Virus record (IMG/VR): IMGVR_UViG_2681813224_000020
From: a virus
Lineage: Duplodnaviria; Heunggongvirae; Uroviricota; Caudoviricetes
DNA: 41,996 nt
Direction: 5' to 3' (one strand)
Below, piece after piece: positions 7,099-39,930 of this stretch; position 1 is the first letter of the stretch; each line of letters starts with the position of its first letter. Both the position numbers and the translations under genes were made by a program. The notes below the pieces were generated by a model that saw only the letters and a program-made list of their open reading frames with translations, made no database searches and had not been told where the DNA came from.

Positions 7099-7629
7099 TC
7101 AAACCTTACTTATTAACATGCACGTTACAGAAATAATAAAAAATACAAATGACATAACCATCCATCGAAACAACTCATTTACAAACGCTGATTTTTCTTT
7201 ATGGATTTTCTCGATTCTATCAATAGCCCTACCATACATTATCAAATGAAATCTGACTGTGTCATCTCTACTACCCCTCAGAAGAAATTCATGTTGTTCA
7301 GGTGTTCGATGCACAGGCATTTTGGGAATATTTCTAAGTTCCCAACATTTCCATAAATAATAAAAACAAAAAACCAAACATACAAAACATGAACATAGAC
7401 ACAATAGAGACAATCTTGCGGATAGACTAGTCTTTAACTGTTGTCCCAGCTCAAAGGACCCAAAAACGGCTAATAATGCAGAAATCTCAACACCAAGCAC
7501 AGCAAGAAGAAAATTAGCTTTGTCCTCTAACCGCCTGTATGTTGTCTTAACTTCTTCATACCTGTCTCTCGAGTACGACAAAATCGTATCTACTTCAAGG
7601 CCAACAGCCTCATTCCTTTGATTGCACAT
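7099..7629 (-). CDS. Hypothetical integral membrane protein (AT-rich moron inside the baseplate gene cluster)
   Basis: 176 aa; N-terminal charged helix, then hydrophobic stretches FLLAVLGVEISALLAVFGSF, LSLLCLCSCFVCLVFCFYYLW and FRWMVMSFVFFIISVTCMLI; clearly AT-rich against flanking tail genes. Confidence 0.6.
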   Translation of the reverse strand: MCNQRNEAVGLEVDTILSYSRDRYEEVKTTYRRLEDKANFLLAVLGVEISALLAVFGSFELGQQLKTSLSARLSLLCLCSCFVCLVFCFYYLWKCWELRNIPKMPVHRTPEQHEFLLRGSRDDTVRFHLIMYGRAIDRIEKIHKEKSAFVNELFRWMVMSFVFFIISVTCMLISKV

Positions 7630-7635
7630 ATTGTA

Positions 7636-7989
7636 TTAATCGTCAACCTTCTTACAAGGAAACGAACCTATGATTCTCGGCGCATCCATGCTGTTCTGCA
7701 GTAGTTGGACATTCAAGAAACGCGTTTCGGTACCCGGACGGCGAATGAACTCGAAACCGTAATTGTTACCGTCTTTGGCTGGCATAAGCCCCATATCCGC
7801 CTTCATTCCATTACCGTTGCCGAGCGTTTTGATTTTCTGGGAGGTAACTGTCTCACCATTAATCCTGAACAATGAATCAGGAATCAACTCTAATTTGTAG
7901 CCACCACACTGAAGCGTGACACCGCCAGGATTCGCAGCAAATGCGAACCCCGGAAGGAAACAGAGTCCAATAACAATCCACTTTTTCAC
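7636..7989 (-). CDS. Small secreted/periplasmic hypothetical protein
   Basis: 117 aa; signal peptide MKKWIVIGLCFLPGFAFA/ANPGG; start overlaps the stop of the hub-like gene at 7989. Confidence 0.55.
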   Translation of the reverse strand: MKKWIVIGLCFLPGFAFAANPGGVTLQCGGYKLELIPDSLFRINGETVTSQKIKTLGNGNGMKADMGLMPAKDGNNYGFEFIRRPGTETRFLNVQLLQNSMDAPRIIGSFPCKKVDD

Positions 7990-32704: not shown

Positions 32705-34207
32705 GTGTCAACTTTGAGAATCGGTATGGAAATCCAAGAGTTTGTAAGTCACTATAAAAACCACCCTGTTCTATTCATTGGAACAGGATTTAGCCTACGG
32801 TATCTAGAAAACTCATTTAGCTGGGATGGTCTTCTTTTGAGTGTCGCAATGGAACTAACCGGTAATGCTGAGTTTTACTACGATTTGAAAGCTGAAAGCC
32901 TAGAAGGTGACGACTATCGATATGATATCTTAGCTACAAAACTTGAAGATATTTTTAATAAAAAGCTGGCAGAAGACCGTAACGGTAAGTTCAAAGACAT
33001 CAATGATGTTTTCTATGAGCACATGAAAAAAGGAAAAAAACTAAGTCGATTCAAAATTTATTTAACTTCAATACTTAAAGACCTAAAGATAAAAGAGTCA
33101 ATGATGGAGGAAATAAACAGCTTAATAAAAACAAGAAAAAACATAGGCTCCATCATTACAACAAACTACGACCAACTCGTAGAGAATATCTTCGAATTTA
33201 ACCCACTGATTGGTAACAACATTCTTTTAAGTAACCCATACGGTTCAGTTTACAAAATACATGGCTGTGTTAGTGATCCTAACAACATAATTATCACAGG
33301 TGAAGACTACGCAAACTTCGACAATAAATATGAGTTAATTCGCGCTCAATTACTCTCAATATTCATACACAACCCTATCATATTTATAGGGTATAGTATT
33401 AGCGATAAAAACATTAAGTACTTATTAAAAACCATATTCTCATACGTTGACTTAAATACCGAACTTGCAAAAAGGATAAAAGATAATTTCCTTTTGGTTG
33501 AATACGAAAAAGACAGCATGTCAACTGAAATTACGGAGCATGACATAGATATAGAAGGCATGTCTATCATAAGAATAAACAAAATAAAAACAAACAATTA
33601 CAAAGCTGTATATGATGCCATCTCTGGACTAGTTTTGCCAGTATCCGCAATGGACATAAGAAAGGTTCAAAAAGTTTGGAGTACCATCAAAAGTGGTGGT
33701 GAGATAAAGGTTAAAATTACAGAAAATTTAGATGAACTTCGCAATGATGAAATGGTCATTGCTGTTGGTTCAGAAAGAACCGTACAATATGTTTATCAAA
33801 CAAAATCTGAAATGATACAGAACTATTTTAAAATAGTTGACGAAGCAAACTCTCAGCTTATCGCATTACTGAATAAGCAAACCATAGCTAATAGCGAACA
33901 CTTTCCAATATACGCTTTTAGTTCTATCTGCCCTGAACTAGAAAATACCGAGACATACAGAAAACGGCAGCTAGATAAAATCATTGGTAACCTTTCTCGA
34001 ATTAAAACATGTAAGAGTGAGGCTGTGTCTATTGATGAAATACTAAAAGAAACGAAAGAGTATAAAGTTGCTAACACGATTATGTATTGCGTACTAAACG
34101 ATACTATTTCATTGAAACAACTACGAGATTATTTAACAAAACCAGGGCATAAAATTGATACCCAATACAGGCGACTTTTATGCTTGTATGATTATTTATC
34201 ATATTAA
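32705..34207 (+). CDS. SIR2-like (SIR2_2 / DUF4020-type) protein with a C-terminal domain of unknown function; candidate NADase-type anti-phage defence gene, AT-rich insertion
   Basis: 500 aa; motifs in order PVLFIGTGFS, SWDGLL, IITTNYDQLVE, YKIHGCVSDPNNIIITGEDY, NPIIFIGYSISDKN match the hallmark pattern of the defence-associated SIR2 family; codon usage is strongly AT-rich against its flanks; GTG start with RBS AGAGG; own terminator. Confidence 0.7.
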   Translation: MSTLRIGMEIQEFVSHYKNHPVLFIGTGFSLRYLENSFSWDGLLLSVAMELTGNAEFYYDLKAESLEGDDYRYDILATKLEDIFNKKLAEDRNGKFKDINDVFYEHMKKGKKLSRFKIYLTSILKDLKIKESMMEEINSLIKTRKNIGSIITTNYDQLVENIFEFNPLIGNNILLSNPYGSVYKIHGCVSDPNNIIITGEDYANFDNKYELIRAQLLSIFIHNPIIFIGYSISDKNIKYLLKTIFSYVDLNTELAKRIKDNFLLVEYEKDSMSTEITEHDIDIEGMSIIRINKIKTNNYKAVYDAISGLVLPVSAMDIRKVQKVWSTIKSGGEIKVKITENLDELRNDEMVIAVGSERTVQYVYQTKSEMIQNYFKIVDEANSQLIALLNKQTIANSEHFPIYAFSSICPELENTETYRKRQLDKIIGNLSRIKTCKSEAVSIDEILKETKEYKVANTIMYCVLNDTISLKQLRDYLTKPGHKIDTQYRRLLCLYDYLSY

Positions 34208-36412: not shown

Positions 36413-37174
36413 ATGATGCAGGATCTCAATGAAATGGCTCTCAAATACCCACACCCTGTCGAAACTTTTCGTCAATTTTTAGTCGAATCCGGATTTGATG
36501 TTACCGGAGAAGAAAACAAAGCCGGTCATGATTGTTATCGTTTAAGTAATGGTGCCATCATAACGCTTTACCACACCGGAACGATTTTGATTCAAGGCTC
36601 ACAAGCGGCAAAACCAGAGGTTGAAGCCATTATTAATGAACACTTGGGTAACGCGCCAGCTCAACGAGTTCAGCCAGCCCCGGTTCAAGAGCCAGCCAAA
36701 AAGATTTTCATCGTTCACGGTCACGACCATGCAGCAAAAGAGCAGCTTGAGCTCATTCTTCATAAGCTTGGGTTACCTGATCATTTTATTTTGCAGAATA
36801 CAGGTGGTACTGGACTTACGATAATTGAAGAACTGGAGCGTGAAATTGGTCAAGGGCAGACAGCGACTCGTTTCGGCATTGTTCTTCTCACTCCCGATGA
36901 TGTGGGATACTCCAAAAGAGACGGTCAAGAAGCAGCCCTGCCCAGGGCTCGTCAAAATGTAGTTCTAGAAATGGGGATGTTGTTATCATCACTCGGCCGC
37001 AGTAACGTGGTCATCTTGCAGAAGCAACACCTTGAACAGCCTTCTGATGCTGCGGGTATTCTTTATCTCAACTTTAATGATCATGTTCGAGAAACTGTAC
37101 CTCGCTTAATCCAGCGCCTTAAACAGGCCGGTTTCACATTTAATGAAGCTCAAATAGCGAACGCTTCATCTTAA
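36413..37174 (+). CDS. Two-domain protein: small N-terminal domain plus C-terminal Rossmann-like nucleotide-binding domain resembling TIR-like / SLOG families; candidate accessory gene
   Basis: 253 aa; C-terminal domain motifs KKIFIVHGHDHAAKEQ, NTGGTGLTIIEELERE, FGIVLLTPDD; Pro/Gln-rich linker APAQRVQPAPVQEPA; RBS AGGAAA; own terminator. Family assignment is tentative. Confidence 0.4.
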   Translation: MMQDLNEMALKYPHPVETFRQFLVESGFDVTGEENKAGHDCYRLSNGAIITLYHTGTILIQGSQAAKPEVEAIINEHLGNAPAQRVQPAPVQEPAKKIFIVHGHDHAAKEQLELILHKLGLPDHFILQNTGGTGLTIIEELEREIGQGQTATRFGIVLLTPDDVGYSKRDGQEAALPRARQNVVLEMGMLLSSLGRSNVVILQKQHLEQPSDAAGILYLNFNDHVRETVPRLIQRLKQAGFTFNEAQIANASS

Positions 37175-37195
37175 TCAATCATTTTTCTAAAAAGT

Positions 37196-37228
37196 AAATA
37201 CCCCTGCAAATGCAGGGGTATTTATTTG
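37196..37228 (+). terminator. Rho-independent terminator after the TIR/SLOG-like gene
   Basis: ACCCCTGCAAATGCAGGGGT followed by ATTTATTTG. Confidence 0.55.
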
Positions 37229-37239
37229 AGGTAACCCCT

Positions 37240-37461
37240 ATGTCATTTAAATATCGGGACAGTCCGCTTTATTATCGGACTGCACAGGAGGCTTTGCGCC
37301 TTGAGCAGTCCGGCGAGTATGACCGGGCGGCGAAGGTCTGGGCCAAAGCAAACCGTGAATCACGTAACGAACTTAATCAGGACTGGAGAGAGCGCCGGGC
37401 TGATTCTTGCCTGATGCAGAACATGCGTGAAAAGCGTAAGGCGGTGGATGATGGCCTATGA
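37240..37461 (+). CDS. Small hypothetical protein
   Basis: Start MSFKYRDSPLYY (ATG 37240) preceded by GAGGTAA; overlaps the VRR-NUC start; the ORF-track start 37210 lies in the terminator stem. Confidence 0.35.
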   Translation: MSFKYRDSPLYYRTAQEALRLEQSGEYDRAAKVWAKANRESRNELNQDWRERRADSCLMQNMREKRKAVDDGL

Positions 37462-37732
37462 ACGTGAAAGCCTTATCGAAAAGCATCTCGTCGCTGAAGT
37501 GAAAAAAGCTGGCGGGGTTGCCTTTAAGTTCGTATCTCCCGGTCGCCGCTCGGTACCGGATCGCATTGTTCTGCTACCCGGCGGTCGCATCGTTTTCGTT
37601 GAATGTAAATCCCCCGGCAAACCACCACGACCTGACCAGTTGCGCACACATGAACGTCTGCGAAAGCTGGGCTTTACCGTGGTGGTACTGGATAGCAAAG
37701 AGCTGGGGGGAATTATTCCCCCCAATACTTAG
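37451..37732 (+). CDS. VRR-NUC domain nuclease
   Basis: PDRIVLLPGGRIVFVECKSPGKPPRPDQLRTHERLRKLG matches the VRR-NUC (PD-(D/E)xK) core; start at MAYERESL; typical partner of SNF2 helicases in phage modules. Confidence 0.7.
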   Translation: MAYERESLIEKHLVAEVKKAGGVAFKFVSPGRRSVPDRIVLLPGGRIVFVECKSPGKPPRPDQLRTHERLRKLGFTVVVLDSKELGGIIPPNT

Positions 37733-37876
37733 TTATGGTTTTTTGGGTGGTGGAGCTGGCTGGGAAGTTTGCTTCGAAGGTTGAAAACCATTATTAGCCA
37801 AGTCATTTTTAGGCTGATACCCTTTTTCAATAGGGGTATATCCATCTTCCTTATAACTTCTTTTGGTATCTGACAT
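37733..37876 (-). CDS. Small Pro/Lys-rich hypothetical protein (47 aa), translationally coupled to the upstream membrane-protein gene; absent from the ORF track
   Basis: Hand translation MSDTKRSYKEDGYTPIEKGYQPKNDLANNGFQPSKQTSQPAPPPKKP; its ATG shares one base with the TGA of the 206-aa gene (TGATG overlap). Confidence 0.3.
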   Translation of the reverse strand: MSDTKRSYKEDGYTPIEKGYQPKNDLANNGFQPSKQTSQPAPPPKKP

Positions 37877-38496
37877 CAGTTGCTTTCTCCATTATTGCAT
37901 GTTGGTAGTTCAAAACGGAAAAACTCTAAATTTTCTATATCGTTACCTAAAATTAATATTCCTAATGTTGAAACTCGAGGGCGTTCAAATCCCCCATCAT
38001 CGTTTAGAACCCAATGTTCCTCAAGATAAATTTGCTCTGGCTCTGGTGCACTGGAAGCAAATGAGTTAGCCCCAAACTTGCCTGCTATTTTTTTACCATT
38101 TTTTAGCGTAATAATCATCCAACAGGGGACTTTTAACCCAAAGAAATAATCCCAAGCTCTTCCGGTAGGATGTGGCATATAATTACATAACCAACGCCAA
38201 GTTCGCATCCAAGAGAAAAATATCGTTAACAATATTGGGCTAATGAATAAAATCACCAAGTATAAAGCACAATAAAGAACAGGATGTTTGAGATATACAC
38301 CCTCAGATTCTATAAAATATATAGGAGCAAACCATACTGCGTAATTTATACAGCTATAAGAAACAATTTCCACAATCGCTTTAGAAGTATCAAAAGCGGT
38401 ATTAGGATGAATAACACTATAAACTTTCATACTTATAAAACCAGGAATAACGAAAAGCAAAAATATAATAATTTTACTTTTTTCCCAAATATCCAT
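37876..38496 (-). CDS. Hypothetical integral membrane protein, AT-rich antisense moron inside the early replication operon
   Basis: 206 aa; hydrophobic segments IIIFLLFVIPGFI, AVWFAPIYFI, VLYCALYLVILFISPILLTIFF, then a soluble C-terminal domain; RBS AGGGG; opposite strand to all neighbours; strongly AT-rich. Confidence 0.6.
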   Translation of the reverse strand: MDIWEKSKIIIFLLFVIPGFISMKVYSVIHPNTAFDTSKAIVEIVSYSCINYAVWFAPIYFIESEGVYLKHPVLYCALYLVILFISPILLTIFFSWMRTWRWLCNYMPHPTGRAWDYFFGLKVPCWMIITLKNGKKIAGKFGANSFASSAPEPEQIYLEEHWVLNDDGGFERPRVSTLGILILGNDIENLEFFRFELPTCNNGESN

Positions 38497-38517
38497 TTTA
38501 ACCCCTAATCTCAGAAT

Positions 38518-39930
38518 GTGTATAGGTTATCTCTTGTTATGATATCTTTTACCCCCCGGTTATACCAAGAACTAATTATTAATCACGAAATAGGTATTTC
38601 CCGCTGCAATATTTGGGCAGGAATGGGAATGGGTAAAACCGTGGCAACGCTCACTACGCTGGAAGATCTCTTTATGGCAGGGGCAGAAACACGCCCCGCA
38701 CTGGTCCTCGCGCCGCTACGCGTTGCAGCAAGCACCTGGCCTGATGAAGCTGTTAAATGGGGGCACCTGCGTAATATTGAGGTACAGCCGATTATCGGTA
38801 ACGCCAAAGCGCGCTCTACGGCGCTGGCGAACAGCAACGCGAGCGTGTTCACCATCAACTACGATAACCTTGTCTGGCTGGTTGAGGAATTGGGAGAACG
38901 ATGGCCGTTCGGTACTGTTATTCCAGATGAAAGCACCCGGCTAAAATCCTTCCGGCTACGAGGTGGTGGTAAGCGCGCTGCGGCACTGGGCAAAGTGGCG
39001 CATAAGTATGTCCGGCGCTGGATAAATCTCACCGGTACGCCAGCACCGAACGGCCTGGTAGATTTGTGGGGACAAGCGTGGTTTGTGGACCAGGGGCAAC
39101 GTCTCGGGCGCACTTACGGTGCGTTTACCTCACGCTGGTTCAACTCGATACAGTTTCCGGGACAGAGCTGGACTAAACTGGAACCTTTTGCTCACTCACA
39201 GGGTGAAATACAGCGAGCATTAGCCGATGTGACCCTCTCGCTGGATGCGGCCGACTGGTTCGATATCAAAGACCCCATCCATAACGTAATCCGCGTGGAT
39301 ATGCCCCCGAAGGCCCGTCAGCAGTATCGTGAAATGGAAAAGGAAATGTTCCTCGAGCTGAATAGCGAAGGCATCGAAGCACCGAACGCCGCGGCAAAGA
39401 CACTGAAGTGTCTTCAAATCGCCAGTGGCGCAGTATACACAGACGACACCGGAAGTTGGTCAGAACTGCATGACACCAAACTACAGGCGCTGGACAGCAT
39501 ACTGACCGAAGCAGCTGGCGCACCTGTGCTGGTTGCTTATCACTGGAAACACGATCTTGAACGCTTGCTTAAAGCATTCCCTCGCGGTCGTCACCTCGAC
39601 CAGGATCCACAGACACTGCGCGACTGGAATTCCGGAAAGATTCCTGTTCTCTTTGCACACCCAGCCAGCGCGGGCCACGGCCTGAACATGCAGGACGGCG
39701 GAAATATACTGGTATTTTTCTCACACTGGTGGGACCTGGAGCAATATCAGCAAATTATTGAACGTATCGGCCCCACCAGGCAGATACAGGCCGGACACAA
39801 TCGTCCGGTATTTATTCACCACATTATTGCTGCCGACACTATGGACGAAATGGTGATGGAGCGGCGCAACTCAAAACGAACAGTGCAGGACATCCTGCTC
39901 GATGCCATGAAAAAGAGAGGTATAGCATGA
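38518..39930 (+). CDS. SNF2-family helicase (DEAD/DEAH-box ATPase)
   Basis: Walker A GMGMGKT, DEAH-like VIPDESTRLK, N-terminal PRLYQ, C-terminal helicase domain; the start may be GTG 38518 or ATG 38539. Confidence 0.85.
   Translation: MYRLSLVMISFTPRLYQELIINHEIGISRCNIWAGMGMGKTVATLTTLEDLFMAGAETRPALVLAPLRVAASTWPDEAVKWGHLRNIEVQPIIGNAKARSTALANSNASVFTINYDNLVWLVEELGERWPFGTVIPDESTRLKSFRLRGGGKRAAALGKVAHKYVRRWINLTGTPAPNGLVDLWGQAWFVDQGQRLGRTYGAFTSRWFNSIQFPGQSWTKLEPFAHSQGEIQRALADVTLSLDAADWFDIKDPIHNVIRVDMPPKARQQYREMEKEMFLELNSEGIEAPNAAAKTLKCLQIASGAVYTDDTGSWSELHDTKLQALDSILTEAAGAPVLVAYHWKHDLERLLKAFPRGRHLDQDPQTLRDWNSGKIPVLFAHPASAGHGLNMQDGGNILVFFSHWWDLEQYQQIIERIGPTRQIQAGHNRPVFIHHIIAADTMDEMVMERRNSKRTVQDILLDAMKKRGIA

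Follow-up and report, generated by a model that had tools for sequence, protein, structure and literature searches.

What kind of function places an antisense, A+T-rich gene pair in the rightward early block of a prophage? The question is raised by the virus record IMGVR_UViG_2681813224_000020 (Caudoviricetes; 41,996 nucleotides (nt), referred to as a whole as the window), in which a gene for a DUF6338 family membrane protein and an adjoining short open reading frame (ORF) for a proline-rich peptide of 47 amino acids (aa) are located between the genes for a VRR-NUC protein and an SNF2 helicase. The two genes, together termed the cassette, almost certainly form a real two-gene module. As judged from its genomic context, the most likely role of the cassette is phage exclusion or abortive infection expressed from the lysogen, an assignment held at slightly under even confidence.

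The window region is 100% identical to the chromosome of Escherichia coli ECONIH2, where a prophage of ~41 kb adjoins yfhL. In RefSeq, the products of the identical ECONIH2 locus are annotated as 'DUF6338 family protein' (WP_021544535.1) and 'hypothetical protein' (WP_021544534.1), and four IMG/VR contigs carry a copy of the DUF6338 protein at 99-100% identity. The junction of the two genes reads ...AAC TGATG TCA..., with one base shared between the stop TGA (37878-37876) and the start ATG (37876-37874); GGAG is found 10 nt 5' of the small-ORF ATG and AGGGG 5 nt 5' of the DUF6338 ATG. GC content is 0.29-0.38 over 37750-38650 versus 0.52-0.57 on either flank. From ~28.4 kb to the integrase gene, every long ORF that fits a gene map points rightward, the antisense pair excepted; the pair is the sole leftward unit within this block. 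An Rfam scan of 36800-39200 yielded sub-threshold matches only, none of them within either ORF. The original prediction, made from the letters of the window alone, had described an A+T-rich antisense ORF pair with overlapping stop and start codons as the only minus-strand unit of the rightward early block; ORFs and coordinates, TGATG overlap, GC dip and ORF map all agree with this description.

A homology search with the 47-aa peptide among 5.8 billion proteins returned only two near-identical relatives; Pfam and NCBIfam scans of this peptide, as well as NCBIfam scans of three further variants, yielded no match. Since the search provided no more than these two relatives, the peptide family was found via the DNA 3' of DUF6338 genes, scanned in one genome per species, IMG/VR and metagenomes. 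The resulting module signature comprises (i) an ORF of 35-70 aa starting within a few bases of the DUF6338 stop, (ii) G[YWFH]xP motifs, and (iii) a PP-x-x-x C-terminus. A peptide ORF was located directly 3' of DUF6338 in 92 of 99 loci of the first set and, by pattern, in 218 of 227 loci of an enlarged set. Inspection of the nine pattern misses revealed the peptide in seven of them (four detection artefacts, one peptide with S-Y-x-P motifs, one ended by the locus end and one in-frame fusion), while the peptide gene is lost or disrupted in two of the 227 loci, by a nonsense mutation and by interruption with an insertion sequence, respectively. Thus, ~225 of the 227 DUF6338 loci possess the peptide. 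The pairing also holds in plasmid-borne DUF6338 copies of Mesorhizobium and Sphingomonas which share only 24-27% identity with the window protein.

The peptides start at a median offset of -3 nt from the DUF6338 stop, have a median length of 54 aa and mostly contain three motifs, with GYQP being the commonest (267 of 442). Among 171 unique peptides, PP occupies positions -5/-4 of the tail in 167-169, K position -3 in 139 and K position -2 in 118, K-K-P being the most frequent ending. The window peptide (8 Pro and 7 Lys, no hydrophobic segment) conforms to the signature, with G[YF]xP motifs at residues 12-15, 19-22 and 30-33, a C-terminal tail APPPKKP (PPPKKP in terms of the signature) and the 1-nt overlap. 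It shares 85-87% aa identity with its counterparts in Salmonella and Klebsiella prophages, and the ratio of nonsynonymous to synonymous substitution rates (dN/dS) of the small ORF is 0.03-0.06, like that of the DUF6338 gene, with values >2 for the remaining two frames. Natural in-frame DUF6338-peptide fusions are also present (P0147, L092), and 26 of 171 unique loci contain the peptide gene in two or three tandem copies. Diverged tandem copies following a single DUF6338 gene are found in Enterobacter prophages (L012, 6623-6937), on a 10.5-kb plasmid of Acinetobacter pittii (L250, 6612-6923) and on a Sphingomonas plasmid (L256, 3083-3494). Purifying selection, conservation across phyla and the recurrent pairing identify the small ORF as a genuine coupled gene, as had been proposed with the proviso that lack of conservation would speak against it.

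Products of such an arrangement are documented for Pseudomonas stutzeri, in which digest-free proteomics detected three Pro-rich peptides (36, 47 and 41 aa) encoded directly 3' of the DUF6338 gene Pstu14405_RS12030, with 44-114 spectra and coverage of up to 100% (98-100% for the two tabulated peptides). Two of the three are known to end in PPPPKK and PPPPPKKGG, and the authors describe their peptides as 'not conserved beyond' the species (PMC10433244). Contrary to this published impression of species specificity, the GYQP/PP-tail peptide is a near-universal partner of the DUF6338 genes examined, across phyla.

The larger product matches Pfam DUF6338 (PF19865) with 123.4 bits (gathering cutoff 26.5; E 1.2e-35), residues 8-193 of 206 aligning to positions 7-200 of the 205-position profile. 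The family comprises 2,596 clusters at 50% identity, and dN/dS of the window gene versus the Salmonella and Klebsiella copies is 0.04-0.05. The AlphaFold2 model assigns block values of 67-90 for the predicted local distance difference test (pLDDT) to three transmembrane (TM) helices, in which P18-G19-F20 and Y47-S48-x-x-N51 are invariant in a 41-sequence alignment; a loop of the protein, SFASSAPxPEQ, is strongly conserved. The C-terminal domain (~95 aa) is beta-rich in the predicted structure, where an N-terminal alpha-helix is followed by a strongly bent five-stranded antiparallel sheet. Judged by fold alone, the modelled domain is therefore an Sm fold. Structural alignments with Sm-fold proteins are at 10-23% identity, and a profile search of the PDB with the family alignment gave no sequence match even at E 10, no solved Sm protein being matched. 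Neither an MS_channel domain nor structural similarity to MscS was found for the DUF6338 protein, with both fold searches yielding nothing MscS-like. The hydrophobic segments and the soluble C-terminal domain anticipated for this protein correspond to the three predicted TM helices and the modelled beta-rich domain.

For 171 unique protein-peptide pairs (effective number 104), every DUF6338 position was compared with the ten C-terminal residues of the peptide for covariation. According to mutual information with average product correction (MI-APC), the top-ranking pairs are all within the Sm-like domain, i.e., tail -1/174 (z 12.7), tail -2/167 (z 9), tail -1/128 and tail -1/193. Tail -2 and residue 167 carry opposite charges, or none at all, in 146 of the 171 pairs and charges of like sign in 3, with K (tail -2) facing D (167) as the majority state (101 of 171 unique pairs), to which K46/D167 of the window conforms. 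The last tail residue is P together with R/K at 174 (P47/R174 in the window), E/D together with K/R at 128, frequently accompanied by R at 193, or R/K together with an uncharged residue 174; these patterns are electrostatically consistent. Acidic-tail peptides belong mostly to a single clade, leaving the raw contingency open to phylogenetic inertia; therefore, the data set was enlarged and joint changes were counted per branch, using a tree built without the four co-varying columns. Tail -2 changes its charge on 19 branches and residue 167 on 29, with 11 joint changes observed versus 1.6 expected (0 of 20,000 permutations) and a complementary end state in 10 of the 11. Since the tail residues co-vary with barrel residues 167, 174, 128 and 193 (D167, codon 37996-37998, R174, I128 and F193 in the window protein), the peptide C-terminus probably docks directly on the DUF6338 barrel. 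Contact with a peptide devoid of a signal sequence would in turn place the barrel in the cytoplasm, and the same two observations suggest a topology with the C-terminus inside.

The site occupied by the cassette is shared more widely than the cassette itself: VRR-NUC and SNF2-helicase flanks are common to 159 of 5,426 complete E. coli genomes, only 3 of which contain the cassette. Comparison with related prophages, which the original prediction had named as the way to the insertion boundaries, located the borders listed in Table 1 by pairwise blastn of window positions 37300-38900 versus the sister loci L002, L003 and L004, plus junction sequences. The flanks share 88-90% identity with those of sister prophages, and the intervening 0.8-kb segment is replaced by unrelated genes. 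All eight sister prophages inspected have the gap filled, in six of them with wholly or partly antisense cargo. The cargos include (i) three versions of a multi-TM protein (214-265 aa), (ii) a Dcm methylase together with a 106-aa ORF, (iii) an Arc/Rha regulatory block, (iv) a 305-aa protein in NMBU_W05E18 (L105 1823-2740, +) with a weak TIR-effector match (E 1.1e-6), and (v) a 310-aa BstA homologue in UPEC 26-1 (L107 1773-2705, -), located in the same antisense slot (PADLOC E 1.4e-115). The multi-TM cargos (L003 2301-3098, L104 1823-2620, L106 1777-2487 and L002 2717-3361, all on the minus strand) are uncharacterised proteins with several hydrophobic helices and a beta-rich C-terminal part. 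Those of L003 and L106 are mutually related (E 2e-14), the L002, L003 and L106 families have no Pfam or PADLOC match, and hhalign of the DUF6338 profile versus the 214-aa (L002) and 265-aa (L003) proteins detected no relationship; they may represent functional analogues of the DUF6338 cassette. Conserved flanks, unrelated replacements, atypical GC content and a hairpin plus promoter-like site are all found here, as expected for hotspot cargo of prophages. The VRR-NUC/helicase gap is a standing cargo hotspot in ~159 E. coli prophages, and the cassette is accessory, horizontally mobile cargo rather than replication machinery. The accessory, mobile nature attributed to the pair at the outset is upheld by the unrelated cargo between flanks of 88-90% identity.

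A Salmonella prophage beside proBA, with another integrase and attachment site, harbours the same cassette in the same antisense slot; its nucleotide identity to the window is 78%, unbroken through flanks and cassette, and dS of the cassette is 0.8-2.3. In lambdoid prophages of Klebsiella pneumoniae, the cassette is located between the replication and nin regions, still bordered by short remnants of both neighbouring genes, ~115 nt from the 3' end of VRR-NUC and ~245 nt from the 5' end of the helicase. These non-functional SNF2-helicase 5' and VRR-NUC 3' fragments (L008, 5761-6000 and 6817-6933, respectively) are the footprint of a capture from a polymerase-type prophage. Because they accompany the Klebsiella copy, the cassette must have resided in the VRR-NUC/helicase slot before it was copied elsewhere. 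A recent insertion separating the helicase from its promoter, as originally envisaged, does not agree with a gap that is full in every sister inspected, the diverged same-slot copy in Salmonella and the flank remnants in Klebsiella. Conservation in the same antisense position of distant phages as part of the replication module had been named as evidence to the contrary; the position is indeed kept in the diverged Salmonella prophage, but the cassette is not thereby a replication gene.

Table 1 Coordinates of the cassette, its predicted domains and the adjoining signals in the window
Feature	Position	Strand	Remarks
DUF6338 gene	37876-38496	-	206 aa + stop, ATG start; Pfam PF19865, RefSeq WP_021544535.1
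Three predicted TM helices	38206-38490	-	Residues 3-29, 37-64, 72-97; AlphaFold2 model m5a181295cde6
C-terminal Sm/LSm-like small beta-barrel (predicted)	37912-38172	-	~Residues 109-195; N-terminal helix (WDYFF), then bent beta-strands
Small partner gene	37733-37876	-	47 aa + stop, ATG start; RefSeq WP_021544534.1
Tail codons P42-P43-P44-K45-K46-P47	37736-37753	-	Putative docking epitope (K46/D167; P47 C-terminus/R174)
Exchangeable hotspot segment	37718-38555	.	Homology to E. coli sisters that bear a different cargo ends at ~37717 and restarts at 38553-38563
G+C-rich hairpin GGGGGGAATTATTCCCCCC	37703-37725	.	Convergent VRR-NUC/small-ORF junction; overlaps last VRR-NUC codons
Promoter-like site TTGGTA-18 nt-TATCAT	38539-38568	-	Within first codons of divergent helicase; 9/12 consensus matches

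Candidate expression signals are present at both ends of the exchangeable segment (Table 1). The hairpin (folding energy -18.3 kcal/mol, z -2.84) was flagged by a scan for terminator-like sites and is likely to act as a bidirectional terminator; it is kept in all three cassette contexts (window, Salmonella L005 and Klebsiella L008) and missing in sister prophages with other cargo. The hexamers and spacing of the promoter-like site are also recognisable in the cassettes from Salmonella and Klebsiella. Read on the opposite strand, its -10 element TATCAT is the helicase start ATGATA, and its -35 element TTGGTA represents the conserved Tyr-Gln codons. Since FDAARGOS_144 (L106), which carries a different antisense cargo, has the same promoter-like arrangement, the slot itself may supply a leftward promoter.

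Beyond these prophages, copies with 40-50% identity occur in Gammaproteobacteria, Betaproteobacteria, Alphaproteobacteria, Bacteroidales, Chloroflexota, Nitrospirota, Synergistaceae, Chlorobaculum and a metagenome-assembled genome of the Methanosarcinales. The cassette or its family is represented in 62 IMG/VR contigs, one cultured phage-plasmid and 20 plasmids, one of only 10.5 kb. Its direct neighbours include (i) a MazF pair on a 16-kb Fluviibacter plasmid, (ii) a PifA homologue (E 3e-70) in lambdoid prophages of Enterobacter, (iii) a pair of OLD-TOPRIM ATPase and UvrD helicase, Gabija-like by Pfam, in an integrative and conjugative element (ICE) of Proteus, and (iv) the gene for a type I restriction subunit (HsdR), 3' of which the cassette is situated on a Gordonia plasmid. 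On Mesorhizobium plasmid NZ_CP088154.1 (L254, 1079-3264), genes for a nucleotidyltransferase, a SLATT protein and a distant DUF6338 protein (27% identity) are co-directional, with an unannotated GFQP/GGYQ peptide ORF overlapping the DUF6338 stop; this run may represent a larger conflict operon using the module. Among 266 crude ORFs within ~6 kb of the cassette from 53 loci, strong PADLOC matches were obtained for Dsr1, a type IIG restriction enzyme, PDC-S06, PtuA/AriA-type ATPases and three retron reverse transcriptases, and Pfam identified six integrases among the first 127 neighbour ORFs.

The window prophage carries further cargo of this kind. A TIR protein of 253 aa is encoded in the early block at 36413-37174 (+), between the DNA polymerase and the ANR/VRR-NUC genes, and matches Pfam CAP12-PCTIR_TIR (E 5.8e-31) as well as the PADLOC candidate single-gene system PDC-S35 (E 1.7e-109), on which a literature search found nothing relevant; its gene is found in some sister prophages and missing in others. 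A SIR2-like protein of 500 aa, encoded in a strongly A+T-rich segment of the early operon (GC 0.31-0.34) at 32705-34207 (+), matches PADLOC PDC-S25 (E 4e-158), with weaker ThsA-type matches, and is probably a third defence cargo of this prophage.

Several observations were made elsewhere in the window and its relatives. The interval between DNA polymerase and VRR-NUC constitutes a second variable slot, occupied by the TIR gene in the window and, in B-JRPT-4119 (L003 912-1940, -), by an antisense gene whose product, a HATPase_c protein of 342 aa, gives a weak DrmA-like match. Sub-threshold Rfam matches to Leu_leader, BSnc120 and PsrR1 cluster at 37170-37295, in the interval that separates the TIR gene from the ANR-family gene, most likely marking a terminator-like hairpin rather than those RNAs. 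Two adjacent ORFs of 175 and 116 aa at 7099-7989 (-), in a patch of lower GC content (0.41) among tail/baseplate genes, presumably correspond to the 'baseplate moron' of the original prediction; Pfam assigned no family to either, and the 175-aa protein has marginal PycTM-like PADLOC matches (E 2.5e-4). At 1056-2461, a gene for a resolvase/invertase-type serine recombinase (Pfam Resolvase, E 1e-51) adjoins a C-terminal tail-fibre fragment and a tail-fibre assembly gene, an arrangement typical of invertible host-range switches.

How such a cassette could exclude phages may be pictured as follows. The DUF6338 product would be an inner-membrane protein with three TM helices followed by the cytoplasmic Sm/LSm-like barrel, and the barrel would drive assembly into a ring that gathers 18-21 TM helices, as extrapolated from the Sm fold. 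The translationally coupled, disordered peptide of 47 residues would be positioned by K46 against D167 and by its terminal residue or carboxylate against R174, I128 and F193, thereby keeping the membrane-embedded DUF6338 oligomer inactive. An incoming phage, or decay of a short-lived peptide, would then release DUF6338, resulting in membrane damage or a block of phage development. Ring assembly, membrane damage and the anti-phage role are all suggested by the Sm fold and by context. The DUF6338 protein and its peptide might accordingly constitute an unrecognised, widespread anti-phage system, in which a membrane-anchored Sm-like ring acts as the effector, the tail plugs or staples this ring, and infection relieves the control with membrane failure as the outcome; in this full form, the proposal is put forward tentatively and is more doubtful than the exclusion role as such. 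The BstA homologue and the TIR-like protein in the same slot, together with the PDC-S35 and PDC-S25 proteins of the same prophage, are counted as defence context for a role in exclusion, as are the PifA-like, Gabija-like, retron and restriction genes near copies of the cassette elsewhere.

A number of points weigh against this assignment. A literature search retrieved no functional study of DUF6338 (PF19865) and no experiment tying it to phage resistance, and a further search combining Sm-like, transmembrane and anti-phage terms found nothing relevant. Current collections have no model for either protein: PADLOC-DB v2.0.0 yielded no family at E <= 0.1 for the DUF6338 protein or the 47-aa peptide, and scans of PHROGs and NCBIfam matched neither. 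The ring and pore are extrapolations based on the Sm fold; for the topology, the positive-inside count gives no decision by itself. The number of promoter-like sites in the region is not above shuffle expectation. Several of the PADLOC matches among the neighbours are to generic ATPase/helicase models, and the association with defence genes is qualitative, consisting of counts per family. Finally, the abundance of the P. stutzeri peptides in uninfected cells fits an antitoxin-like regulator and equally a housekeeping role.

One alternative is a membrane function outside conflict (channel, transporter accessory, envelope or stress factor, or membrane-tethered RNA binding) that merely rides on mobile elements. 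A large and widespread family, formation of the peptides under ordinary growth conditions in P. stutzeri and the many ordinary genes among the neighbours would be in accord with it, as would the conserved polar TM residues Y47, S48 and N51 and the loop SFASSAPxPEQ, reminiscent of a ligand or channel site, and the fact that RNA is the usual ligand of Sm folds. However, the distribution is sporadic, with 3 of 5,426 E. coli genomes carrying the cassette at this slot and copies of 40-50% identity scattered across unrelated phyla. Moreover, the copies reside on prophages, ICEs and plasmids, often adjoining defence genes, and the cassette of the window is A+T-rich foreign cargo antisense to a phage operon. 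A non-conflict function is thus considered unlikely.

Somewhat less probable still is an addiction or stabilisation module, in which DUF6338 would act as a toxin at the membrane, countered by the peptide as its labile antitoxin, such that loss of the prophage, plasmid or ICE kills the cell, without any anti-phage role. Two translationally coupled genes, their presence on small plasmids (10.5 kb in Acinetobacter; 16 kb in Fluviibacter, next to the MazF pair), peptides abundant in uninfected P. stutzeri and a peptide gene that is so rarely lost or disrupted (2 of 227 loci) all agree with such a module, and the tandem extra peptides would be expected if antitoxin dosage matters. Many toxin-antitoxin systems double as abortive infection, though, so that this explanation overlaps with phage exclusion more than it excludes it, and a slot that also accepts BstA and a TIR-like protein suggests phage conflict rather than upkeep of an integrated prophage.

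Alternatively, the peptides could be exported as proline-rich antimicrobial or signalling compounds, with DUF6338 serving as exporter or immunity protein. They are Pro-rich, cationic and often present as two or three tandem paralogues, like precursors of bacteriocins or ribosomally synthesised and post-translationally modified peptides (RiPPs), and the P. stutzeri authors raise an antimicrobial role and mention DUF6338 in biosynthetic gene clusters (PMC10433244). Yet the peptides have no signal, leader or cleavage motif, and no modifying enzyme or ATP-binding cassette (ABC) exporter accompanies the pair. The P. stutzeri peptides were full-length (98-100% coverage for the two tabulated), in samples whose membrane fractions, according to the authors, were left out of the analysis (PMC10433244). 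In addition, the co-evolution of the tail with the soluble barrel resembles that of a stable binding partner, and in-frame fusions to the DUF6338 C-terminus occur. Export is accordingly regarded as very unlikely. A recent one-off antisense insertion that disrupts the early operon, with the small ORF being doubtful, would agree with an A+T-rich segment and a cassette that is rare (3 of 159 genomes sharing the flanks), but is hardly credible given a slot filled in 8 of 8 relatives, the same-slot cassette of the diverged Salmonella prophage (dS 0.8-2.3), flank remnants that travel with the cassette into Klebsiella phages, and a small ORF under purifying selection that is conserved across phyla.

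The cassette is therefore considered a good candidate for a new phage-exclusion system. Already known are the DUF6338 family and the present locus as database entries and, from the P. stutzeri paper, Pro-rich peptides beside one DUF6338 gene; no report was found in the literature of the near-universal pairing, the peptide signature, the Sm-like fold, the residue-level co-evolution or the placement in a defence hotspot. If the cassette does protect against phages, it would add a defence family missed by current catalogues (PADLOC, PHROGs, NCBIfam), with parts unlike those of known systems, i.e., a membrane-tethered Sm-like domain and a peptide regulator of ~50 residues that most gene callers omit. 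An orphan Pfam DUF of ~2,600 clusters is also turned into a defined two-component module with a specific, testable contact (K46/D167, and peptide C-terminus/R174, I128, F193). Furthermore, the gap between VRR-NUC and SNF2 helicase is identified as a defence hotspot in this family of E. coli prophages, in which several further cargos, including the multi-TM proteins, are uncharacterised.

Among known systems, BstA is a prophage-encoded abortive-infection protein which mediates defence from the prophage state (Owen et al. 2021, PMC8585504). As prophage cargo of the same kind, it occupies the identical antisense slot in the UPEC 26-1 sister prophage, but sequence and architecture are unrelated: a single gene encodes BstA, which is soluble and binds DNA, and the DUF6338 protein has no PADLOC match to it. 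RexAB of phage lambda is a prophage-borne two-gene exclusion system with a membrane effector. Here, the likeness, as with pairs of the toxin-antitoxin type, would be confined to the proposed logic of a lysogen-made pair consisting of a membrane effector and a controlling second product; homology is absent, and the partner is a disordered peptide of 47 residues rather than a sensor protein.

With respect to architecture, the heptameric MscS-type channels have an Sm-like beta domain placed after three TM helices; the DUF6338 protein resembles them in domain order only. Proteins of the Sm/LSm/Hfq type usually form 6- or 7-membered rings and bind RNA. The window barrel shares their fold according to the model, at no detectable sequence similarity, and differs in being tethered to three TM helices, in containing the long conserved insert SFASSAPxPEQ and in its apparent ligand, which is a peptide tail instead of RNA. 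SH3 domains recognise polyproline ligands of the type PxxPx[K/R], and by analogy the DUF6338 protein appears to use a small beta-barrel for binding polyproline plus a basic residue that is paired with an acidic barrel residue (K46/D167). The co-varying residues, however, are located in the beta3-beta4 hairpin and neighbouring strands, as opposed to the RT or n-Src loops of SH3 domains, and the free peptide C-terminus seems to be part of the epitope.

The P. stutzeri operon of Pstu14405_RS12030 has the same layout of a DUF6338 gene followed by short Pro-rich ORFs, and the detection of its peptides is the sole experimental evidence for the module (PMC10433244). Whereas the peptides were held to be species-specific there, the present survey identifies a partner after nearly every DUF6338 gene examined, recognisable by its GYQP repeats and PP tail.

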